From: an uncultured virus (IMG/VR IMGVR_UViG_3300032087_004917)
Taxonomy: Duplodnaviria > Heunggongvirae > Uroviricota > Caudoviricetes
Virus record (IMG/VR): IMGVR_UViG_3300032087_004917
DNA: 64,000 bases
Reading direction: 5' to 3' (one strand)
A program made the translations under genes and the position numbers. Under the pieces are notes generated by a model. The model had not been told where the DNA came from, did no database searches, and was given only the letters and a program-made list of their open reading frames with translations. Positions 2,816-57,549 of this stretch are shown here, piece after piece. How positions within the stretch are numbered: the first letter of the stretch is position 1; each line of letters begins with the position of its first letter.

Positions 2816-4240
2816 TTAGGCGTTGTTACCGTGCAGGTTCAGAATACGGAAGATTCTGTAATACTGGTTGCTTCTATTAGCAGCGGCAGCATGAGGATCT
2901 GAACGGTCAGTTCCACCACCAGACACGAACGGGTTATTCACCAGACCGTATCGGGTCTTGAAGCCAATCTTCGGTTGGAAGTTGGTTTCGTTGACTGCAC
3001 GAACCATTTGCAACGGAACGTATGGGCAGTAGAACATACCTGCGTCGTAGGGGCTAGAGCCTCTATAACCGACGAGGGCATAGTCAGCACCGGACACGGA
3101 GTATGGGTCAATGTAAACCTTCATACGACCATTGAGAGTACCAGCAAAGGTGTTGCCAGTGTCATCAACCGAAAGGTTAATGTCAGGGGTCGGGGTCAGG
3201 TTCAAGAAGCCGGACATGGCGAGTGCCGAAGCAACGTCAGAGGTGCAGAGAACAAAGTTGCCCTTACCACGACGAGTTTCTTTAGCAATCACGTTGGCTT
3301 CACGTTCCATTTGGAACATCAGACCACGGAACTTCTCAGCGGACCAACGACCATCAGAGTCTTGCTCAAGGTCGTAGATACCACCGAAGTCGGTAGCGAG
3401 AGCAGCACCGGAAAGACCGTGGTTGCTCTTATAGAAAAGGTCGGCTTGTTGTGCGCCGAGTTTAGCGTTGTTATAAATCGTTCTCACAACTTCACGGTTG
3501 ATTTCAGCGAGGATTTCAGCCGAGAGAATGTTAGCGAGTTCGACTTCCGCATCAAGACCGTGGATAGCCTTAAGGTCTTGGGCGAGTTCAGAGGTGTATT
3601 CAGCCTTCAATGCACGGGTCTTAGCAACGACGGACGTACGGTCGATGGTGAATGACATCTCTGCGAAAGTAGAAGTCTCAAGCGTAGCGGTAGATGCACC
3701 AGCAGCGACAGGAATCGCATCAGCACCACCAGCGGTGTTAGCAGCACCACCAGTACCACCAGCGGTACGAGTACCCAGAGGGTCACCAGTGCCACCAAAG
3801 GCGGGGAAGCCTCTAGAAGCGGTCGTACCGGGAGCGGAGTTCGAGAAGTCAGTTGGCGACTCGTCAAAGAGTGCTTCACCTTCTCTACCACCAGCACCAA
3901 CAAAGTTAGCCTTCATCGCAAAGATCAAACCAGTGGGACCAGACATAGGCTGGACACCACAGATGTCGTATGCGATCATGTTAGGCATGGCTCGTCGGAC
4001 GAGTGAGATCAGAACGGGGTCAAAGCCAGCAACAGTGTTGAATGCACCGTTGGTGTTGATGAAACCGTTAGCACCGGGGACCGGGGCAACACTGGTTTCT
4101 TCTTTCAAGGCTTTCTCTTGGTTTTCAAGGAGAATCGCAGTCACATTTCTACGATAGTTATCCTTAATGGGTTCCATTCCTTCACAGTTGAGGACGGGTT
4201 CCCACTTCTCCTTGAGGTTTTCAACAAGTACGTTGTCCAT
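2816..4240 (-). CDS. g23: Major capsid protein gp23
   Basis: FDPVLISLVRRAMPNMIAYDICGVQPMSGPTGLIFAM; RALKAEYTSELAQDLKAIHGLDAE; FQPKIGFKTRYG. Confidence 0.99.
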   Translation of the reverse strand: MDNVLVENLKEKWEPVLNCEGMEPIKDNYRRNVTAILLENQEKALKEETSVAPVPGANGFINTNGAFNTVAGFDPVLISLVRRAMPNMIAYDICGVQPMSGPTGLIFAMKANFVGAGGREGEALFDESPTDFSNSAPGTTASRGFPAFGGTGDPLGTRTAGGTGGAANTAGGADAIPVAAGASTATLETSTFAEMSFTIDRTSVVAKTRALKAEYTSELAQDLKAIHGLDAEVELANILSAEILAEINREVVRTIYNNAKLGAQQADLFYKSNHGLSGAALATDFGGIYDLEQDSDGRWSAEKFRGLMFQMEREANVIAKETRRGKGNFVLCTSDVASALAMSGFLNLTPTPDINLSVDDTGNTFAGTLNGRMKVYIDPYSVSGADYALVGYRGSSPYDAGMFYCPYVPLQMVRAVNETNFQPKIGFKTRYGLVNNPFVSGGGTDRSDPHAAAANRSNQYYRIFRILNLHGNNA

Positions 4241-4264: not shown

Positions 4265-5437
4265 TTAGGAAACACGGTTTTGGACTGCCTTCGAATTGAT
4301 TCTCGAAAGCATGTTAGTGTATGCAGACATTGTGGGGGAAAGATCAACTGATTCTCTCACAGCATCTTCTTCATTAGTGGCGAACTCCTCAACGAGAGGG
4401 GTTTTCACTGAATCTTCTTCATTGAAGAAGTTTTCTTTAAGCGTGGAAAGTTTCTCTTGGAAATCTTCCACGTTGGTAAAATCAAGATTTTCTACCATCG
4501 AACGGAATTTTTCTTCGTCGGAATCAGCCAAGTCGCGTGAGGCAGTTTCATAAAGTGCTTCACACTGTGCCTTGACAAGTCCTTTCGAAAGTTCAATATT
4601 CTTTTCGATGGATTCGTTAAGTTTAGATTCAAGGTCATCGACCTTATCGTTCAGCCCCTCGACAAGATCATACTTCTCATCGGGCATTGCGACGTAATGA
4701 GTTTCAAAGAGGTTCTTAAGACCAATCATAAAGGATTCGGAGATGTCTGAACGAATGCCGGAGTCAATGGCGACTTCGTTTTCTTTTCTCCACTCCTCTA
4801 CGACATAGGTGAGGTACTCGTCCAGTTTGGATGCAAGTGCTTCTTTTTCCTCATCGAGTTGGGCTTCAAATTCTGAATGAAGTTCTTCTCTAACGGCATC
4901 AACTCTCATGTTGACGGCTGCTTCAAAAACAACACCAGCCTTTTCTTTAAACTCTTCAGAAAGTTCTTCACCAGTGAAAAGATTGCCAAGTTGTTCAGCC
5001 ATAGGAGTCATTTTTTTGGTTTTCTTAGCACCAAAATCATCTTCCTCTTCTTCATCACCGTGCATGTCTTCCTCTGCACCCATCTCTTCATCGGGCATCA
5101 TCATCATAGAACCCTCTTCGGATGGCATCTCCTCATCAGGCATACTATACTCTTCCTCTTCGGGTTTCTTAAGATCAAGTTTGCCTGCATCATCAACCAC
5201 TTCGGCTGATGCATCAGATGGTTTCATGGCAGGAGTTGGTGCTTCCTTGCCAGTTGGTTTGATAGTTTCGGGGGTAACACCGTCAGCAGACGTTGACGAA
5301 ACGCCATCTGCGGAGGTATCATCTCCTTTACCGTTTTTCTTTTTCATAGCCTCTGCCTCGACGTAAGTTTCATCGATTGAAGCGACTGATTGAGCGAGAA
5401 TTTCCTTCGCAGTTTCCAAAGCGTTTTTGAGACTCAT
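4265..5437 (-). CDS. g22: Prohead core scaffold protein gp22
   Basis: Acidic coiled coil; LSEEFKEKAGVVFEAAV, LDEYLTYVVEEW; between g21 and g23. Confidence 0.93.
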   Translation of the reverse strand: MSLKNALETAKEILAQSVASIDETYVEAEAMKKKNGKGDDTSADGVSSTSADGVTPETIKPTGKEAPTPAMKPSDASAEVVDDAGKLDLKKPEEEEYSMPDEEMPSEEGSMMMMPDEEMGAEEDMHGDEEEEDDFGAKKTKKMTPMAEQLGNLFTGEELSEEFKEKAGVVFEAAVNMRVDAVREELHSEFEAQLDEEKEALASKLDEYLTYVVEEWRKENEVAIDSGIRSDISESFMIGLKNLFETHYVAMPDEKYDLVEGLNDKVDDLESKLNESIEKNIELSKGLVKAQCEALYETASRDLADSDEEKFRSMVENLDFTNVEDFQEKLSTLKENFFNEEDSVKTPLVEEFATNEEDAVRESVDLSPTMSAYTNMLSRINSKAVQNRVS

Positions 5438-5456: not shown

Positions 5457-6110
5457 TTATGTATCTTTGCTTAGATTTGAGAGGAAATCTGCGAACGCAT
5501 ACAATTTCGCTTCCTCAAGTTGTGATCTCGAAGCACGTTCGATATGCTTTTTGTGAGATTCAATACGTCGAGCGGTGAGAATACCGTTTTCCCACACCCA
5601 CTCTTTGCCTTCCATAATACCTTGAACATATGCGTCCGGTGCAGATGGATCAGCGACAATATCAACGGCTGAAAGTGAGAAATCTTCTTGCACTTCGTTG
5701 ACACCATTAACTTGTTTCAAGGAACCCATACCACGGGAAGAGACACCAATTTTGACACCCTCTTTGATAAGATCTTTTACAATTTTACCATAGGGAGTAT
5801 CAAGGATTTTTGCCTTTCCGTAAATATCGTTCCCATCAACACGAAGTTCTTTAATCAGGTGCGAAACTCTTTCGAGATTAAGTTGGGGACCATCGGGGTG
5901 ACCGAGTTCGCCCATCGCACGATTTGTTTTAACATATTCATTATTGTATCGCCGAACTTCATTCATCAAAGTTTTCTGCGGATACACACGACCATTGCGG
6001 TTCTTTTGCTCTGCTTGCATGAAGATACCATCAATGTGATATTGCTTTTCACCATTCACTTCTTCAGTGACAAGATTAATATTGTCATTTACTTCAGTGA
6101 TAAGAAGCAT
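5457..6110 (-). CDS. g21: Prohead core protease gp21
   Basis: GIFMQAEQKNRNGRVYP, GELGHP, GVSSRGMGSL, DIVADPSAPDA. Confidence 0.97.
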   Translation of the reverse strand: MLLITEVNDNINLVTEEVNGEKQYHIDGIFMQAEQKNRNGRVYPQKTLMNEVRRYNNEYVKTNRAMGELGHPDGPQLNLERVSHLIKELRVDGNDIYGKAKILDTPYGKIVKDLIKEGVKIGVSSRGMGSLKQVNGVNEVQEDFSLSAVDIVADPSAPDAYVQGIMEGKEWVWENGILTARRIESHKKHIERASRSQLEEAKLYAFADFLSNLSKDT

Positions 6111-48788: not shown

Positions 48789-49661
48789 TTACTCTCCGTT
48801 CATTTTATTTAGGATTGTTCTAATTGAGGGATACTCTTTTTTACCCTTACCCTCTTGGACTGCTTTCAAGGCAGAGTGAATACCAACATATCTCTCATTG
48901 GTTTCTTTTTTGTCCTTAGCCCCTTGCTTTTTTTCGTTTTCGGCAGATGTATCCGAGTCTTCGGTGTCAGATGCATCAGATCCTTTTGCCTTGGCGATTT
49001 TTTCCAAAAGTTTTGCTCTTTCCTCTTCGGACATACTCTTAAACTTTTCAGGCGTGATACCCTGTGCGTCAAAAACCGCTTTGATTTTTGCAAACTCTTC
49101 TGGATCACCCATCCTTGCAATCAATTCATCCATCGCAGCCTGAGCATTGCCAAGTTCCTCTAAAGTATTAGCACGTTTAAGTTTTGCCTCAACAGAATCA
49201 AACAATATTTTTCCGATCATTGGAGGAGGAGGCTCCTCAAGTTCTGGTCCGAAACCAACGAGTTTTTTTAACTGTGGGAAAAGTTTGTCTCTCATCACTT
49301 TGTTGATACCCAAAAGTAACTTTCTTCCAAGACCGGGATTGTCAGCCTTAAGTTTGACGCTTTTCAATTTTGCTTTAATTTTGTCAGACTCCGTTTTGTA
49401 ATTTTTTAGGAAGTCCTTTTGCATTTTTTCATTTTCGTCTTCTTTTTTCTTCGCTTTGTCTTCTTTTGCCTTGTCTTTTTCTTTTGCCTTACTTGCTTTC
49501 GCCGCTGCGTCTTTTCTTCTCTTGATGACCGCTTGTGCTTTGCCTTTGCTCGGAGATCCTGTGTCTACAGTGCGTTGCAATTCAACGGTGCTTGCCTTAT
49601 CGACATCTTTGATGCCTTTGGTGTTATCTCGCCTTGTTTCCTCACGAAGATCGAGTTTCAC
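48789..49661 (-). CDS. Lys/Glu-rich hypothetical protein (candidate internal head protein)
   Basis: Coupled to the upstream ORF; begins MKLDLREE; highly charged. Confidence 0.65.
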   Translation of the reverse strand: MKLDLREETRRDNTKGIKDVDKASTVELQRTVDTGSPSKGKAQAVIKRRKDAAAKASKAKEKDKAKEDKAKKKEDENEKMQKDFLKNYKTESDKIKAKLKSVKLKADNPGLGRKLLLGINKVMRDKLFPQLKKLVGFGPELEEPPPPMIGKILFDSVEAKLKRANTLEELGNAQAAMDELIARMGDPEEFAKIKAVFDAQGITPEKFKSMSEEERAKLLEKIAKAKGSDASDTEDSDTSAENEKKQGAKDKKETNERYVGIHSALKAVQEGKGKKEYPSIRTILNKMNGE

Positions 49662-51241
49662 TTCTTTTTACCTTTAGCCTTGTATCCGCTAGCGAAAGCG
49701 GCACGACGTTGAGCATCACTGGCGAAACCCTCTTCCATGTCTGGCTTATCATGAAGATATCCCATAGCCTTGAATTTCAAATGATCCTCTCTAGTTTTTG
49801 CGTCAACCTCTTCACCAGTCGTGGGATGATACATTTTGTGTGCTTTGAATTCTTTTTCATCAAGTCGGAAACCCTCCTTGATTGCGATGAGTTGTGCTTC
49901 TCCCCTCATTCCTAAATCTTGTTTGTCACCGAGTTTTTTGATTTTATTTCCCATCATCATATCTGACACAGGGTGAATTTCGAAACCAATTCCTCTATCT
50001 GACGTAGTGACGTAAAAACCATCACCGGATTTAGCATTCTTCTGGAAGTCCTGCATCATTTTTCTATATTCTTTATCAAAGCCAAACTTTTTGAGTTTCG
50101 TTTGAAATTCAGTGGCTTCCCTACCGAAACCCTTGAACATGATTTTCACGGTTTCGTCAAGAATCTCAACTTGCTCTTCGATGGACCGATCAAACTCACC
50201 ACCAGAGTCCTTGATCATTTTTGCAAGTTTTCTTCTCACTGCTCCAGTATGCTTCTTAGCGTCAAAGGTAAGCGTGGTCATTTTTCCTTTGAACATAGCA
50301 CCCTCGTAGCCGGGGACTTTGCCCATCGTGATGGCTCTTGTCAATCTTTCGTAGGCATTTCTATCACCCTTGACCATCACTTGAATTTTAGATCCACGCT
50401 CCTCTTCAAGTTCTGCATACTCTTCAAAGACCTTAGCCATTTGTCTTTCACTGGTTTTAATCAGTTTACCACCATACTTTTTCATAATCTTTGCTACGCT
50501 CTTAAGTTCAAGATTACCTAGATCAGTAAAATCAGTGGTGACTTTACCATCACTCGTTCCGGTCGATGATCCTTGTCTTGCCTGTGAAACTTCTCGCATG
50601 AATTTTTGTGCAGTCGCTTTGTCTGAAAACTGAAACTCAGCCTTTGCTTCGTCAAGTTGCACATCCTCAAACATCTTCGCATCCTTTTCGGCTGCGGCTT
50701 TGCTTCTGTGGGGTGGACCCTGTGGAATGTGTTTTTTCAACTTGCGGCTGAAAACCATCACTTGATAGCCTCGTCTTGTTTTTACAACTTTTGGTGCTTC
50801 CAACTTAGCGTCCTGCATTGCAGCCTCAATGTCAAGATAGTCAAAATCGTCACGGCTCTCGTCAAGTTCCTCTACACCTTCTTTGACAATTTTCATATCA
50901 CGCAGGATGGTTCCCATGTCACCCTGAGCGAGAGACACGGAGCCATTGCGATCAAAAAGTTTATACTTCACGCCACGGGGATTCTCTGTATTCACAAGGA
51001 TGATACGACCGACTCTAGACGCACCCACAACACGATGCCCACTGGTCACTTTTAGTGTAATCGGCGTGCCACCTCTGGTAAACGAATTGCCAAAGTCAAC
51101 CTCGATTTCGCTGCCTTTTTTCAACTTATCGTAAATATCTTTTGCTTTTTTCTTATCAATAGTTTTAACTTCTTCATTTACTTTGTTCAGTGGATGAAAG
51201 AATGGACTGGTTTTATCGTTTTGTGGTGGGTTAAAATACAT
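49658..51241 (-). CDS. Modular protein, about 7 basic modules separated by acidic [LV]-x-E linkers
   Basis: Linkers KVNEE, EGVEELDE, EDVQLDE, EEYAELEE, EEQVEILDE, EGFRLDE, DMEE. Confidence 0.8.
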   Translation of the reverse strand: MYFNPPQNDKTSPFFHPLNKVNEEVKTIDKKKAKDIYDKLKKGSEIEVDFGNSFTRGGTPITLKVTSGHRVVGASRVGRIILVNTENPRGVKYKLFDRNGSVSLAQGDMGTILRDMKIVKEGVEELDESRDDFDYLDIEAAMQDAKLEAPKVVKTRRGYQVMVFSRKLKKHIPQGPPHRSKAAAEKDAKMFEDVQLDEAKAEFQFSDKATAQKFMREVSQARQGSSTGTSDGKVTTDFTDLGNLELKSVAKIMKKYGGKLIKTSERQMAKVFEEYAELEEERGSKIQVMVKGDRNAYERLTRAITMGKVPGYEGAMFKGKMTTLTFDAKKHTGAVRRKLAKMIKDSGGEFDRSIEEQVEILDETVKIMFKGFGREATEFQTKLKKFGFDKEYRKMMQDFQKNAKSGDGFYVTTSDRGIGFEIHPVSDMMMGNKIKKLGDKQDLGMRGEAQLIAIKEGFRLDEKEFKAHKMYHPTTGEEVDAKTREDHLKFKAMGYLHDKPDMEEGFASDAQRRAAFASGYKAKGKKK

Positions 51242-52272
51242 TAGTCGTTCCCCTCGGCGAGATAATCATCAATGTTATCGATGACATTGGTTTCCATGAC
51301 ATCCTTGACTTGGAGATACATGTCTGACAATGGGTCGTAATACTTGCCTGCCTTCTTGTCGTAGTAGTAGACCTGACCAGACTTTCGGCTGCGGAACGGT
51401 CCCTCAAGACCTTCCTTCTCACGATTTGGGAAACGATCTCTGTCAATCGGAGTCACCAACCGACCTCCTCGACCGACTTTCCCTTGGGCTACCATTTTGT
51501 TATAGTGCGCCCTCGCAGACATCTCATCAACCTGCTCGACATCCTCTTTAAACATTTTGACCTTTTGACCGATTTTCGCACCGGGAAGTTCCATGACCTT
51601 TTGTCCAAACTTCTTCTTCTTCTTGGCATCCTTCTCTGTCATGCCAGCGGCGATGATCATGCCTCTGCCGTCTACAATCGCGTGAAACTTTTGTCCACCC
51701 AAAGCAGAGACACTTGCAGGTCGCTTGTAGAAAATCTGCGATTCCTCATTCTGCACATCATCCATCATCATTCTGTTGACATCAAACATGCCGGGGTTGT
51801 CTTTCATAATCTGGTCAGCAGCCTTCTTGACATTACCCCTATGCTTCTTGAGCATATTGCGAACAAGAGTGTCGCTCTGTTCACCCATACGGAATCCTTC
51901 CTTGTCAAGAATCTTGAAGACCTTCTCCATATCGCTGCCTTTGTATTTTTTCATCATCGCACGATATTCGGGCGTGCCTTCTTCAAGTTCCTCAGTGCCT
52001 TCGTTCAGTTTATTTTCATATTTGTCCATAAACTTATTCATTGTAGCGTTATTTGTAAAAGTGATTTTGTAAACTTTATCTTTCACTTTCTTGCCACTGA
52101 CAACCAAACCTCTACGTCCAGTCTCGGAGCCAATGGCAGCAGCACCATCGGCATCTTTCTTGAATTCAATATCAACAGTCACGGCTTCTTGCAATGCTCG
52201 TTGTTGCTCTGCAATGATACGAGAGTAAAATGGGTTGGCTGGATTATTTCCGGGGTTTGGCAAGTTAAACAT
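51241..52272 (-). CDS. Modular protein, about 4 modules separated by acidic linkers
   Basis: Linkers ALQE, EGTEELEE, DDVQNEE, EDVEQVDE; last module GLEGPF...YYYD...GKYYDP..DMY. Confidence 0.8.
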   Translation of the reverse strand: MFNLPNPGNNPANPFYSRIIAEQQRALQEAVTVDIEFKKDADGAAAIGSETGRRGLVVSGKKVKDKVYKITFTNNATMNKFMDKYENKLNEGTEELEEGTPEYRAMMKKYKGSDMEKVFKILDKEGFRMGEQSDTLVRNMLKKHRGNVKKAADQIMKDNPGMFDVNRMMMDDVQNEESQIFYKRPASVSALGGQKFHAIVDGRGMIIAAGMTEKDAKKKKKFGQKVMELPGAKIGQKVKMFKEDVEQVDEMSARAHYNKMVAQGKVGRGGRLVTPIDRDRFPNREKEGLEGPFRSRKSGQVYYYDKKAGKYYDPLSDMYLQVKDVMETNVIDNIDDYLAEGND

Positions 52273-52547
52273 TAGTCATCCTTCCGAGTTGAAAGTTCAT
52301 TGCGAATCCAGATCAGATCCGTCTTGATTTCTGCGAGTTGAGTTTGGATAGTAGTTCGAAGAGCATCGGCATCTTTCATTCTTTCTTCCAACGCCGTGTT
52401 TTTCTCCTCAAGAGACTGGATTCGATACTCCATTTCTGCATGATTCGCTGAGAAGTTCCAGATAAAAATCGAGATCGTCAACGCCCATCCGACGATTGTT
52501 GCAACAAAAGATGGGGTGAACCATTTAGATTGAGTATTAGAAGCCAT
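52272..52547 (-). CDS. Small membrane protein (one TM + coiled coil; holin/spanin-like architecture)
   Basis: FVATIVGWALTISIFIW followed by heptad coiled coil; GGAG RBS; TACATA upstream. Confidence 0.6.
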   Translation of the reverse strand: MASNTQSKWFTPSFVATIVGWALTISIFIWNFSANHAEMEYRIQSLEEKNTALEERMKDADALRTTIQTQLAEIKTDLIWIRNELSTRKDD

Positions 52548-52616
52548 TTATGATATCTCCGTGCTAATATGTATCATTACTTTTTGTTGCATATACATAA
52601 CTTGACGGAGTAAAGT

Positions 52617-52835
52617 ATGAGATTGAACCCCAAAAATAGGCACGGAAAGCATATCATCAACATTCACGGTGAGCGTGAGGTTGTGAAAGAGGAGCGTCCT
52701 GCCGCTTTTTCTGACACTTTAGACTCAGACGTTGAATCTGGTGATGTGGCTGATGTGATTATTCGTCAAAATCAAATCATCAACCGCGCACTGAGAAGGA
52801 CTTTCAGATCGCGGATTGCACGAAAGGCAATCTAA
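52617..52835 (+). CDS. Small hypothetical protein
   Basis: TACATA (52594-52599) and GGAG upstream. Confidence 0.6.
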   Translation: MRLNPKNRHGKHIINIHGEREVVKEERPAAFSDTLDSDVESGDVADVIIRQNQIINRALRRTFRSRIARKAI

Positions 52836-52836
52836 C

Positions 52837-54009
52837 ATGGCAGATAAAAACGATGATGTCTTGGGTGATCTCCTTGATCCCAAGAAATTGCTTGAGCAAC
52901 TTCGTGAATGTGAAACAAAGCAATTTAAAAACGCCATCGATCTTCTGCAAGAATGTGAAGAGCGTCACCGTCGAAACGAAAAGAAGTTATCTCGCCTGAC
53001 AATCGCCGCCTCTGCTGGCGGTGCTTTGGTCGGTCAAGAAGCAGTCAAAGAAGCAGGTGCAATTGTTGAAACACTCGACTCTGTTATCTCTGGCGATGTA
53101 TCCGCTATTACAGACGTAGCCGAAGGTGCTGGATTTGATCCGGCATCCATTGGTTTGTCCGTTGACGAAAATGGTAACGTTGTTCTTCCCGGTGGATTCT
53201 TTGGTGGTGCTGGTGGTGCAGGTGGTAATGGTTTTGGCAACTTAGGCGTAAATCCAGAGAAAGCAAACCCAACCACAGAGGACGAAGAAGACGCTACCGA
53301 CGAGGACGAAGAAAAAGGTAAGAAAGAGGAAGAGGAAGAAGAGGGCGAAGAAGAGGAAGAGGAGGAAGAGTCCGAAGAGGAGGAAGAAGAGGAGTCCGAG
53401 GAGGAAGAGGACGAAGACGAAGAAGAGGATGAGGAAGAGGACGAGGAAGAGGACAAAGAAGAAGAGGAAGAGGAAGAGCAGGAAGAAGAGGAAGAGGAGC
53501 AGGAAGAGGAAGAGCAAGAAGAACAGCAAGAACAAGAGCAGGAACAGGAGCAGCAGCAAGATACGCCTGAGCCTGACCCACCCTCATCCGACCAATCTGC
53601 AAGTATTCCGAGTCTCCCTGACAATACACAAGAAACGAAACTTATGGATTTCTTTGAGGATGTTGCCCTTACAGAAATGGAGCAGGCAATAGAAACAATC
53701 ATCCAAGACACACCCGACCTCCTTGAGAACCTGCCTGCAATCTTGAGATCAAGAAAGCCCGACGCTGGTGAGGTGATTGTTGGTGATTACGATACGAACG
53801 ATCCGACCCCGCCTATCGTGATTGATGAGGAAGTGGATGTCATGGAGGAGGTCATTGAGACTGTCGAGGTTCCGGCTTCACCTATCGACCCATATATCCC
53901 ACCGATTGCGGGTGTTCCGATTCCTGAGCCGGGGGTGCTTAGTGTCGTTATTTTAGTGGCTTGGTTCTGTGCCGGTTGGTCATTCAGACGCAGGCGAGAT
54001 AAGGATTAA
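52837..54009 (+). CDS. Poly-Glu acidic protein with C-terminal PEP-CTERM sorting signal
   Basis: ATG 52837 two bases after the upstream stop; ~90 aa Glu/Asp/Gln tract; ends VPIPEPG-VLSVVILVAWFCAGWSF-RRRRDKD. Confidence 0.8.
   Translation: MADKNDDVLGDLLDPKKLLEQLRECETKQFKNAIDLLQECEERHRRNEKKLSRLTIAASAGGALVGQEAVKEAGAIVETLDSVISGDVSAITDVAEGAGFDPASIGLSVDENGNVVLPGGFFGGAGGAGGNGFGNLGVNPEKANPTTEDEEDATDEDEEKGKKEEEEEEGEEEEEEEESEEEEEEESEEEEDEDEEEDEEEDEEEDKEEEEEEEQEEEEEEQEEEEQEEQQEQEQEQEQQQDTPEPDPPSSDQSASIPSLPDNTQETKLMDFFEDVALTEMEQAIETIIQDTPDLLENLPAILRSRKPDAGEVIVGDYDTNDPTPPIVIDEEVDVMEEVIETVEVPASPIDPYIPPIAGVPIPEPGVLSVVILVAWFCAGWSFRRRRDKD
53278..53560 (+). repeat. Low-complexity GAR/CAR trinucleotide tract encoding poly-Glu/Gln
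   Basis: About 280 bp purine-rich (GAA/GAG/GAC) run. Confidence 0.9.
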
Positions 54010-54224
54010 ACCTTAGAATCCAAGTAGTCTGCCATTCCGTCAAGATTGTCAACGGCAATAGCAACTTTGTCAGTCCACCATGATGGTAGCATGGCTTCAT
54101 TTGGAAGTTTGTCTAATTCCATTTGCATTGTCATCAATGCCTTCGCTGCAATTTTGACTTTATTTTTTGCAGAGGCGACATCAGTATGTCCGTCTTCACT
54201 CAGTTCTTTGGGATCAAGTTTCAT
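54006..54224 (-). CDS. Small hypothetical protein (single module; candidate internal head protein)
   Basis: MKLDPKELSE then DGHTDVASA...LPSWWTDKVA; coupled to the upstream ORF. Confidence 0.7.
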   Translation of the reverse strand: MKLDPKELSEDGHTDVASAKNKVKIAAKALMTMQMELDKLPNEAMLPSWWTDKVAIAVDNLDGMADYLDSKV

Positions 54225-55921
54225 ACGGTGTCTCCTACCTTTTTGGCTGCACCACGAATTTGTCGAATCATCAACTTTCGTGGTTGAATTTGTTTCTTTA
54301 AGTAAAGTTTTGCGTCTCCGGTATCCGTGGGACCGTATACTATTTCTTTAGATCTACGGTCGATCACATATGTCATCGCTCTTTCATCAAGGCTCATTTT
54401 AAGACTCTCAAGTTTCATCACCTTTTTCATTGCATTAAACAAATCTTTAGGTTTGAACTTGTGAACATTGTCCACTCTTGCCTCATAGTCACCATAGCCT
54501 GAAAGATTCATGTCATTCAAGGCATCTGCGATCTCTTGCTTGGCTCCCCTTTTCAGTCCTTTGATCATGCTCTCCAGATCACGGGCTATCATGGTTTCGT
54601 CAAGTTGCACATCTTCATCAACATGAGCATAAATTCTGTCTAATTCAGCCACCATATTATCAAAATTTTTGAGGACTCTTTCCGCGCGTTCTTTATTCTC
54701 GCGGTCTAATTTCGCTTTGTTCCTTGGTAAATTGTTATACGCTCTTGCAAGCCTGTCCAACTTCCTCTCCACCTTGTCCAACACTTTATCAAGTTTACCC
54801 AAGATTGATTCGTTGATATCCTCAAACACTTTCACCATCAAAAAATCATATTCACTTTCAAACCTGTTGAACTGTCGCCTACTGTTGAACGTGACATCAA
54901 ACATTTTACCTTTTGCTGCGCTCACATCTTTGGCATCAACGAACATGTTCTTTTTCTTTGCATCTCGCATATCAGAGTTATTTTGGTTTGGTCTGCCAAA
55001 AAATGCGACCCGTGCCTTGATAACCTCTTCACCAAGTTGCACATCCTCAATCAGACCATCTTTCTTAGCAAACTTCTTTGCTGAGTCTGTGTCCATGTGT
55101 GTTCCGTAGTATGCCGACACCTTACCCCGTTTGTCGAAGATTGCCATCATCACTCCGGCTTGGCTGGATGGACGGGAAGTCTTGATGGGAATGACGGCAA
55201 AAGTGCCACCATCGGCTGCGGGTGCAGAGAAACTATACTCTGATGGCTTGGTCATTTCAAGTTGATTTCTTGTGTCTCTGCCAATCTTGGTTGCAGGCTT
55301 ACGTTTCCCACTACCCATAGGATTGAACGGAGCCATCGCTTCATCGACTTGCACATCCTCTTTCATCGCATCAACATGACGCTTTGCAACGAAGAAGTAG
55401 GAGCCTTTGTCTTTAGGGCTTTTTGCACCGACAAATCTATCACCATCAAACGGGTGCAAGTCAATGACCTGTCCCTTTTTGAACATCTCTTTTGGCATAC
55501 CCGACTTTTGTGATTTGTTGTATCCGGTTCTCAGTCTGCCTTTCATCCACTTACTGCTGGTAGGTGAAATGTCAAACAAACTTTTCTCTTCGTCAATCTG
55601 CACATCCTCGTTCATCAACTTACGGAATTTTTCACGCGAGGCGGCAGTTTTGAATTGTAAAAGAATTTCTTTATCATCTTCTTCACGACCGATGACAAGA
55701 TTAGCCATTTGCTTTTGCTTCTTGCGACCAGCCGGAGTCTCGTCATCAAGAACCTTTTGCATTTTCTTTGCCATGGTGGAGGTCTTGGGCAATGCCATCT
55801 TGATACCAGACACAGGAGCGACACCGGGAGATCTTGCACGATAGGTCGTACGTCGCGTTATCTCGCTAAGAGGATGGTTGATATTGTCCAATGCACGCTG
55901 AATGATTGCTTTTTTATCCAC
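54221..55921 (-). CDS. Modular protein, about 7 modules separated by EDVQ[LIV]DE linkers
   Basis: Start moved to GTG 55921 (GGAG upstream). Linkers HPLSE, EDVQIDE, EDVQVDE, EDVQLGE, EDINE, EDVQLDE, MSLDE. Confidence 0.8.
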   Translation of the reverse strand: MDKKAIIQRALDNINHPLSEITRRTTYRARSPGVAPVSGIKMALPKTSTMAKKMQKVLDDETPAGRKKQKQMANLVIGREEDDKEILLQFKTAASREKFRKLMNEDVQIDEEKSLFDISPTSSKWMKGRLRTGYNKSQKSGMPKEMFKKGQVIDLHPFDGDRFVGAKSPKDKGSYFFVAKRHVDAMKEDVQVDEAMAPFNPMGSGKRKPATKIGRDTRNQLEMTKPSEYSFSAPAADGGTFAVIPIKTSRPSSQAGVMMAIFDKRGKVSAYYGTHMDTDSAKKFAKKDGLIEDVQLGEEVIKARVAFFGRPNQNNSDMRDAKKKNMFVDAKDVSAAKGKMFDVTFNSRRQFNRFESEYDFLMVKVFEDINESILGKLDKVLDKVERKLDRLARAYNNLPRNKAKLDRENKERAERVLKNFDNMVAELDRIYAHVDEDVQLDETMIARDLESMIKGLKRGAKQEIADALNDMNLSGYGDYEARVDNVHKFKPKDLFNAMKKVMKLESLKMSLDERAMTYVIDRRSKEIVYGPTDTGDAKLYLKKQIQPRKLMIRQIRGAAKKVGDTV

Positions 55922-56201: not shown

Positions 56202-56212
56202 GTTAATATGTA

Positions 56213-56512
56213 TTAGAACATATGTTTTTCGCGTAGTTGCTTCTCGTACTTGGTTCCCTTGACACCGGCTCCGTTGCAGACTCTCTCCATCATGTCTTGG
56301 AATCCACCCTCATTGTGCGGTCTGTCAATACGCTGATTGTCATCCATCTTCATCGAAGGTGCAGAACCATTGGTTGAGACATACCCTTGTTTGATCTTTT
56401 TCTTTCCACACTCGGGACAGACTTCCTTTTCAGGCTTCTTTCTGTCATCGAGCCATTGAAAGGACTCAAACTGGTAATTACATTCACGGCATTCATATTC
56501 ATACGTTGGCAT
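56213..56512 (-). CDS. FmdB-family zinc ribbon protein
   Basis: [14 protein letters not shown] ... CPECG. Confidence 0.88.
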
Positions 56513-56967: not shown

Positions 56968-57549
56968 TTATTTAGGAGGGATCGGTCCAGCATTGTGAAT
57001 GTGTTGAAGGAAGCGTTGAACTTTTTCTTTACGCTTTCTGACAATGACCTCCCATACCTTGTCCCAGTATTTCTTGGTCGCCTCTTTCTTGTGACCATTG
57101 GGACCACCATTGTGCATTCGTGCCATTTTCTCAAGAGTGACAACACCGAGTCTTCGTTCTGTGGCATAGATCTTGAGCCATTCGATCACGACCTGTCGAG
57201 CATACTCTTTGTTAAAACAATCTTCATATTTGCCACCCAAATTTGATCTTTTGTTTACGTCTGTCCAGTAGATACGCCAGATCTGATATGCCCCGATTGC
57301 ATTTCCATTGTCTCCGATGGCTCCGCTCTGACAATTTGATTCGACTTCACATATGGCATCGAGCAGAGCATCAAGGTCATCTTGCATGATGCCGGGAATG
57401 ACACTTTCTTTGTCTTCTTCAATGACAAAGGTGACTTCTGGAGCAGGTGGTTCAGCGAACGTAGGGATCTCCACAATGGGTCCGGTGAAGAGTTTGACGA
57501 AGCATCCTACGGTAAATCCAACGACGATAGAGGCAAACGTATTGTGCAT
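56968..57549 (-). CDS. Lysozyme-like protein (i-type/destabilase-like) with N-terminal hydrophobic anchor
   Basis: LDAICEVES, GD.G.AIGAYQIW..YWTD, ARMHNGGPNG, T.KYW.KV; N-terminal FASIVVGFTVGCFV. Confidence 0.78.
   Translation of the reverse strand: MHNTFASIVVGFTVGCFVKLFTGPIVEIPTFAEPPAPEVTFVIEEDKESVIPGIMQDDLDALLDAICEVESNCQSGAIGDNGNAIGAYQIWRIYWTDVNKRSNLGGKYEDCFNKEYARQVVIEWLKIYATERRLGVVTLEKMARMHNGGPNGHKKEATKKYWDKVWEVIVRKRKEKVQRFLQHIHNAGPIPPK

Follow-up and report, generated by a model that had tools for sequence, protein, structure and literature searches.

Three late-type genes in a 64,000-nucleotide (nt) stretch of an uncultured virus (IMG/VR record IMGVR_UViG_3300032087_004917; the whole stretch is called the window below) are chains of basic modules of 60–110 residues, joined by acidic linkers of the form E-x(3-5)-[LIV]-x-E. 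Across relatives, modules have been inserted, deleted, reordered and moved among the three genes, with the junctions inside the linkers. We consider it fairly probable that each of these genes is an in-frame array of cassettes encoding proteins that are probably packaged in the head, and that are cut and recombined at the linkers. Pfam and PHROG searches found gp23, gp22 and gp21 in the window, which belongs to a marine T4-like phage.

All three arrays lie on the minus strand, with 4–8 modules per gene. Array gene A (54221..55921; 566 aa, GTG start at 55921) encodes a leader and the modules EKSL, AMAP, EVIK, SILG, TMIA and RAMT, modules being named after their first residues. Array gene B (51241..52272; 343 aa) encodes a leader followed by AVTV, GTPE, YKRP and MSAR, and array gene C (49658..51241; 527 aa) a leader followed by VKTI, SRDD/EAPK, AKAE, ERGS, TVKI, KEFK and GFAS. 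Among homologs, 95% of 957 segments have an isoelectric point (pI) >9 and the median segment length is 88 aa; 72 segment clusters have three or more members, some of these being fused or cut pieces. A stand-alone gene of 72 aa on the same strand (54006..54224) consists of a short leader ending in LSE and one module, and this module sits internally in an array, between linkers, in the relative L094.

Pfam and PHROG yielded no function for any module of the arrays. Gene A had no match in either, the last module of gene B matched phrog_13298, of unknown function, and just one of 70 array homologs (74 were chosen and four dropped for size) had any Pfam match. An AlphaFold2 model of gene C built from 65 sequences (predicted template modelling score, pTM, 0.33) placed separate domains between low-confidence linkers, and the modules are thus predicted to fold separately. 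Modules AKAE and ERGS were modelled as ferredoxin-like folds; Foldseek with the whole gene C model gave generic ferredoxin/ACT-like matches only (TM-scores ~0.1), and the ESM Atlas gave a single match at 0.77 for gene C residues 199–356, which is a lead only.

The original prediction had described six 21-mers on the minus strand as a linker conserved in its DNA, and these proved to be real, with the right letters and coordinates. They are linkers A1 (55589..55609, EDVQIDE), A2 (55340..55360, EDVQVDE), A3 (55028..55048, EDVQLGE) and A4 (54596..54616, EDVQLDE) in gene A, B2 (51742..51762, DDVQNEE) in gene B and C2 (50648..50668, EDVQLDE) in gene C. The pattern GANGATGTGCAR has six matches in the 64 kb against a shuffle mean of 0.07, and six were reached in 0 of 100 shuffles; chance is the wrong null for this count, however, because the linker peptide is conserved. 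The 8-mer GATGTGCA occurs six times in the window, every time inside these linkers. Any two of the six share 15–20 of 21 bases, with a longest exact run of 8–18 nt, while the 30 nt on each side share 5–15 bases pairwise and are unrelated, as had been proposed. The further proposal of a cassette array within coding sequence was right in that all six linkers are in frame and the modules shuffle. It fell short in that the linkers are distributed over three open reading frames (ORFs), not one, and in that about ten more variant linkers, which lack GATGTGCA, had been missed.

Most linkers are junction sites in relatives. This holds for A1 (e.g., L106, L112), A2 (L114), A3 (L108, L113, L114), A4 (L115), the degenerate B2, which has lost L/I-x-E (relatives have DDVQIDE), and C2, which has the most partners of all. 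It holds also for the collapsed linker EDINE (54809..54823), in whose place relatives have EDVQLDE, and for the variant linkers EGTEELEE (51979..52002; L103), EDVEQVDE (51523..51546), EEQVEILDE (50153..50179; L100, L113) and EGFRLDE (49856..49876). In L100/L083 a module is inserted at the variant linker EGVEELDE (50858..50881), with 11 identical bases (AACTTGACGAG) on both flanks. At ESLKMSLDE (54383..54409) the contigs of two runs carry a 230-letter insertion (54391–54400), and at EEYAELEE (50399..50425) no junction was called in either of the two motif-blind tests described below. All these variants lie on the minus strand.

Two protein searches returned 102 and 160 homologs, the best 120 of the 160 being listed. 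Many of those listed are 85–99% identical, yet over just 15–38% of the query; when read out, the homologs proved to differ at linkers, each time by entire modules. Tested without reference to the motif, 196 homologs gave 390 block ends and 138 distinct junctions, which were assigned to a linker if within 3 residues of it. The six linkers, 6.2% of positions, held 65 of the 138, and a further 44 fell at other linkers (8.8% of positions), which were picked by us, two of them after seeing the junctions. The same procedure on the DNA of 30 loci gave 37 ends within the arrays, 13 at the six linkers (4.6% of positions) and 14 at the others (8.8%); the flanking genes, with roughly double the number of aligned bases, had 8 ends. 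Module order in relatives is therefore not fixed and breakpoints concentrate in the linkers, in keeping with the original prediction. Its reading of the 21-mers as recombination microhomologies is borne out as far as the junctions lie there, but variant linkers without GATGTGCA serve as well (the 44 of 138 and 14 of 37 above), and homology as the cause is a matter of inference, taken up below.

Individual relatives illustrate the range of changes, and in those that are 95–99% identical the junctions can be placed to the base. L100, 95–99% identical, carries three additional modules in gene C and is missing one; two gene C modules sit in gene A in L108; two modules are in reversed order in L114; and genes B and C are fused as one array in L113. 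Altogether 199 proteins display 161 architectures. At 7-residue linkers 219 distinct neighbour pairs were seen, one upstream module having 20 partners, and 123 of 257 neighbour pairs were seen again in at least two cluster representatives. Contigs of four runs from four studies have joints and contig ends at linkers, including a joint 54610–54818 (one run), a joint 54824–51755 (two runs) and many loose ends. Three further joints (50668–55680, 51507–54600 and 54623–55339) have sides of 22–24 letters, roughly the length of a linker, and we left them out of the evidence. None of the joints in this survey, which covered contigs only, closes one module on itself as an excised mini-circle would.

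That the linker is conserved as DNA could not be judged without relatives, since the peptide is conserved and the six copies alone give a post-hoc chance of about 0.03 for a common Val codon. With the six linkers subtracted, GAT-GTG encodes 13 of the 90 other Asp-Val pairs of the window, and GTG is used in 12 of the 43 other Val-Gln pairs. A scan of linker DNA in relatives that left the Asp and Val codons free found GAT-GTG in 39 of 41 distinct D-V-Q linkers of the lineage (window copies included), or 29 of 31 when one linker was taken per upstream module. Module bodies have it in 7 of 40 Asp-Val pairs, with GTG in 8 of 16 Val-Gln pairs, and linkers of other lineages in 9 of 52. The contrast of 29/31 with 7/40 (Fisher P 5e-11, the copies not being independent) means that codon bias alone does not explain GAT-GTG. 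No GTT or GTC was found among the 41 lineage linkers, though GTT is the commonest Val codon, and V-E linkers have GTT or GTC in 8 of 8.

Much of the conserved core has another source. Neither GACGTG nor AGCT occurs in the window or in 152 kb of lineage loci, part of which overlap, against 17 and 667 expected; GAT before GTG and CAA before CTN are therefore largely forced, and the remaining synonymous positions of the linker vary freely, near background rates. The claim of DNA conservation thus survives for the Val wobble G, left unexplained by these absences, and fails for GAT and CAA; conservation beyond the peptide appears to amount to that one free base. The sole transition open to this G gives GTAC, which is under-represented threefold (94 vs 298), and transitions make up 68–81% of variants in run contigs. 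We read the Val G as reflecting common descent of linker DNA together with a partial lock through restriction-site avoidance; linkers of unrelated modules do have one DNA ancestor in common. The window also lacks other restriction-type sites: AGCT (257 expected) and GGCC (282 expected) both occur 0 times in the 64 kb, as do CCWGG, GGYRCC, GTCGAC, GGATCC, CTGCAG, CGATCG, CACGAG and GACGTG. Avoidance as extreme as this suggests that the host has many restriction systems.

The position of crossovers within the linker was traced through its ends. Linker residues 1–2 agree best between junctions with a common upstream module, and residues 5–6 between those with a common downstream module. The DNA has the same gradient, in few pairs (28 and 20): agreement at linker base 3 was 0.75 in same-upstream pairs and 0.40 in same-downstream pairs, against a background of 0.37. 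The points at which identity switches vary, lying after GAGGA(T), at AACTTGA or past the entire linker. Because the linker ends track the neighbouring modules, crossovers within the linker fit better than a recombinase site; the gradient and the variable switch points agree with short-homology recombination and argue against a fixed site. As the cause of the crossovers, homology seems likely to us, rather than selection retaining joins at linkers.

The linker peptide suggests a second role. The window encodes a gp21-type prohead protease (5457..6110, minus strand; Peptidase_S77, PF03420, E 8e-41; phrog_207), the proposed processing enzyme, with His, Ser and Asp motifs that we take to be catalytic. 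Proteins A, B and C together have 19 L/I-x-E sites, of which 18 coincide with a linker or the end of a leader and one is in a C-terminal tail. Among the six linkers four have L/I-x-E, one V-x-E and one neither. Passages of PMC9026906 describe T4 gp21 as cleaving after Glu in L/I-X-E, and T4 internal proteins as loaded through propeptides of 10–19 residues. Positions P3 and P1 of the linkers obey the gp21 rule across lineages that differ in linker DNA, and 118 of 199 proteins have conserved leaders with HPL or NPF and a site at the end. Linker-like tetrapeptides are carried by gp22 and gp21, but not by the portal, sheath, tube or capsid body. The scaffold gp22 (4265..5437, minus strand; Pfam, PHROG) has many sites like those of the linkers (QLDE, KLDE, KLNE, SIDE), and the major capsid protein gp23 (2816..4240, minus strand; Pfam) has the N-terminal L-x-E sites LLE39 and LKE47. 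Since its peptide fits the gp21 rule, the linker is probably both protease site and crossover point, and cutting by gp21 at linkers is likely.

In the explanation that we favour, general phage recombination would pair two linkers across 8–20 near-identical bases. The recombinant would stay in frame because linkers are in register, and the product, in frame and with its cutting site kept, would let the linker spread and become homogenised. The core GAT-GTG-CAA-CT would be fixed because its synonymous transitions yield the lacking or disfavoured GACGTG, GTAC and AGCT, not because a recombinase reads it. The arrays would be expressed late and loaded into the prohead by their N-terminal leader, and gp21 would cut following the last Glu of every linker. 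The small basic proteins thus released may condense DNA, or may be ejected and act on the host like T4 internal proteins. Cleavage, packaging, module function and the mechanism of recombination are those parts of this scheme that we infer. A broader version, to which we give slightly less than an even chance, is an integron-like, in-frame library of injected proteins in T4-like aquatic phages: one 21-base word would be both prohead-protease site and crossover site, modules would circulate among co-occurring phages, and one leader would load unknown host-takeover or anti-defence proteins whose boundaries are readable from sequence.

Several results weigh against the favoured explanation. Outside linkers lay 29 of the 138 protein junctions and 10 of the 37 DNA ends, many of which look like plain divergence, although they were not checked one by one. 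Testable DNA triads were exact parental hybrids in only 3 of 6 cases. Avoidance of TGTACA, considered as a lock on the Val codon and set aside, is weakly supported (0 vs 3.1 expected in the window, 16 vs 20 in lineage loci), so that the lock on the Val G is explained only in part. L/I-x-E is a short motif, to be met with in the acidic parts of any protein; its depletion inside 29 module bodies (6 vs 10.3 expected, P 0.096) is not significant, and linker B2 does without it.

The inexact triads would suit a filter by selection only, whereby illegitimate joins arise anywhere, the survivors keep modules, frame and cutting site, and linkers are alike through inheritance without this likeness causing the joins. 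Some junctions lie at divergent linkers that have little DNA in common (EEQVEILDE/EGFRLDE, MEEG), and collapsed spacers exist (E, QLDE, EDINE), 73 of 286 spacer entries differing from 7 residues. We nevertheless find this account unlikely. Linker DNA must be copied, because unrelated modules share synonymous bases (GAT-GTG following 29 of 31 upstream modules); junctions are in register in 213 of 286 cases, a figure biased by the choice of anchors, and the module inserted in L100 has its 11-base identity on both sides.

Slightly less likely still is that linkers shuffle but stay uncut, the arrays being proteins of several domains that bind DNA or act on the host, with flexible acidic spacers between the domains, or the linker a scaffold-binding motif. 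The insignificant depletion of L/I-x-E in module bodies and the tolerance of the degenerate linker B2 count in its favour. They are outweighed by the agreement of P3 and P1 with the gp21 rule where linker DNA differs, by the tetrapeptides that mark gp22 and gp21 but no portal, sheath, tube or capsid body, and by the 72-aa stand-alone gene, which is a leader, a site and one module. Such a gene may also be a way for modules to enter or leave arrays.

Known systems resemble the arrays in part. Repoila et al., in 1994, are said to have found T-even internal-protein loci shuffled via the conserved leader and flanking sequences, with the number, order and identity of units varying, each unit being a separate gene. 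The T4 internal proteins IPI-III and Alt, which passages of PMC9026906 describe with a capsid targeting sequence and gp21 processing, share with the arrays a T4-type head module with an S77 protease, L/I-x-E sites, small basic products, variable non-core cargo and a short N-terminal leader that ends in a site. In T4, however, every internal protein has a small gene and a propeptide to itself (PMC9026906, same passages), whereas the arrays have one leader and up to ~10 modules per frame, their cutting and packaging being presumed. Measured against that class, the arrays have the gp21 head module, sites at unit boundaries and small basic segments, but with 4–8 modules they depart from one mature protein per gene.

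Promoter early stem-loop (PeSL) shuffling in T4-type phages, as treated in parts of PMC2839356 and PMC4122927, is alike in that a repeat is the crossover point for excision, insertion or swap in hyperplastic regions, with no known dedicated recombinase. PeSLs are ~100-bp intergenic promoter-terminator (stem-loop) elements of early genes (same parts), in contrast to linkers, which are 21 bp, coding, frame-keeping and probable protease sites; the arrays thus have the repeat with gain, loss and swap of units, but not the intergenic promoter and stem-loop of ~100 bp. Adhesins gp37/gp38 also exchange inside coding sequence at conserved peptide motifs, but there the motifs make up the core of a single folded adhesin and keep a strict order (PMC3157838, in part), whereas in the arrays whole unrelated domains vary in number and order and pass from gene to gene. 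Polyvalent proteins of phages and conjugative elements likewise have many unrelated domains per chain, some head-packaged and processed; their domains, unlike array modules with their near-total lack of Pfam families (1/70 homologs matched), are recognisably enzymatic and often include their own peptidase (PMC5512222, in part). The main text of that paper does not use the word 'linker', and the arrangement is not described in the passages of PMC5512222 or PMC9503650 consulted, nor was it found in the open-access literature, subscription journals being outside that coverage. The arrays are like T4 internal proteins chained together, with PeSL shuffling moved into coding sequence, and they fit neither class, nor integrons.

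An integron-like system, with a recombinase or nuclease dedicated to GATGTGCA that would mobilise modules as cassettes, is improbable. It would account for the confinement of the 8-mer to linkers (6/6), its near-invariance while adjacent wobbles vary, and the lack of GTT and GTC in 41 linkers. But integron cassettes cross over at a fixed point in attC-like palindromes, whereas here the junction position varies within the linker and junctions occur at linkers without the 8-mer; the linkers have no dyad symmetry, and none of the longest 25 of 158 inverted repeats has its two arms in linkers. The same peptide is written in other codons in other lineages. Integrons have a dedicated integrase, and no recombinase was found among the 22 window proteins scanned with Pfam and PHROG, from 64 kb of genome. 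Assembly chimerism from the repeated linker can be set aside as very improbable: every relative is a metagenomic assembly, and short-sided joints can stem from other organisms or repeats, but the six linkers share no exact repeat longer than 18 nt, 123 of 257 neighbour pairs were seen repeatedly, identical joints turn up in runs from different studies and many junctions introduce modules that the window does not have.

If our explanation is true, the arrays are a diversity generator in which the protease site is the recombination site, so that the product of a non-allelic crossover remains in frame and can still be cleaved. This would account for a class of long hypothetical proteins in marine T4-like phages, and would break them down into dozens of small units open to testing, with candidate anti-defence or host-takeover functions. 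Shuffling at linkers is seen directly among the relatives. The cutting half is testable now in the cultured Methylophilales phage Melnitz, whose genes 18, 20 and 21 carry the similar linkers EEFQLDE, EEIEIDE and EEVELDE; Melnitz phages have one gene C module in common with the window (a second by eye). Elsewhere, gene B had no relative among cultured phages, a protein search with gene A found none in the viral contigs database, and protein P0014 had none in the genome contigs database. Several other viral lineages (L005, L024, L025, L029, L047 and others) have long proteins with EDVQLDE/EEVELDE linkers in other codons, and common modules at differing positions. The array design is therefore widespread.

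ATA(A/C)ATA resembles the T4 late promoter, and 13 of its 19 occurrences in the window (ATACATA 12, ATAAATA 7) are no more than 60 bases from a gene start, both array operons among them. ATACATA, with a putative late-promoter function, stands at 56207..56213 (minus strand) upstream of a 95-aa gene and gene A, and at 52568..52574 (minus strand) upstream of a 91-aa gene, gene B and gene C; the exact TATAAATA is absent upstream of the arrays. Genes at 131–2089 are presumably uvsW and uvsY-like, judging by gene order. The nearest cultured capsid proteins, those of Pelagibacter phage HTVC008M and cyanophages, are ~55% identical. The stretch was present in 20 of 24 listed runs, of which 19 are labelled as metagenomes (seawater, marine, biofilm or rhizosphere) and one as a coded organism.

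In the 290-aa gene, a stretch of 82–83 bases (49405–49489), where there is no linker, is replaced by 22–23 letters both in L099 and in the contigs of two runs. A 390-aa protein with a long poly-Glu tract, encoded on the plus strand between the arrays (52837–54009) and so on the strand opposite to them, is retained in relatives. We take its C-terminus (PEP, a hydrophobic stretch and RRRR) to resemble a PEP-CTERM sorting signal, for which Pfam gave no match. Also near the arrays are a small membrane protein (52272–52547, minus strand) that weakly matches a holin family (phrog_1296, E 0.004) and a destabilase-family lysozyme identified by Pfam (56968–57549, minus strand).

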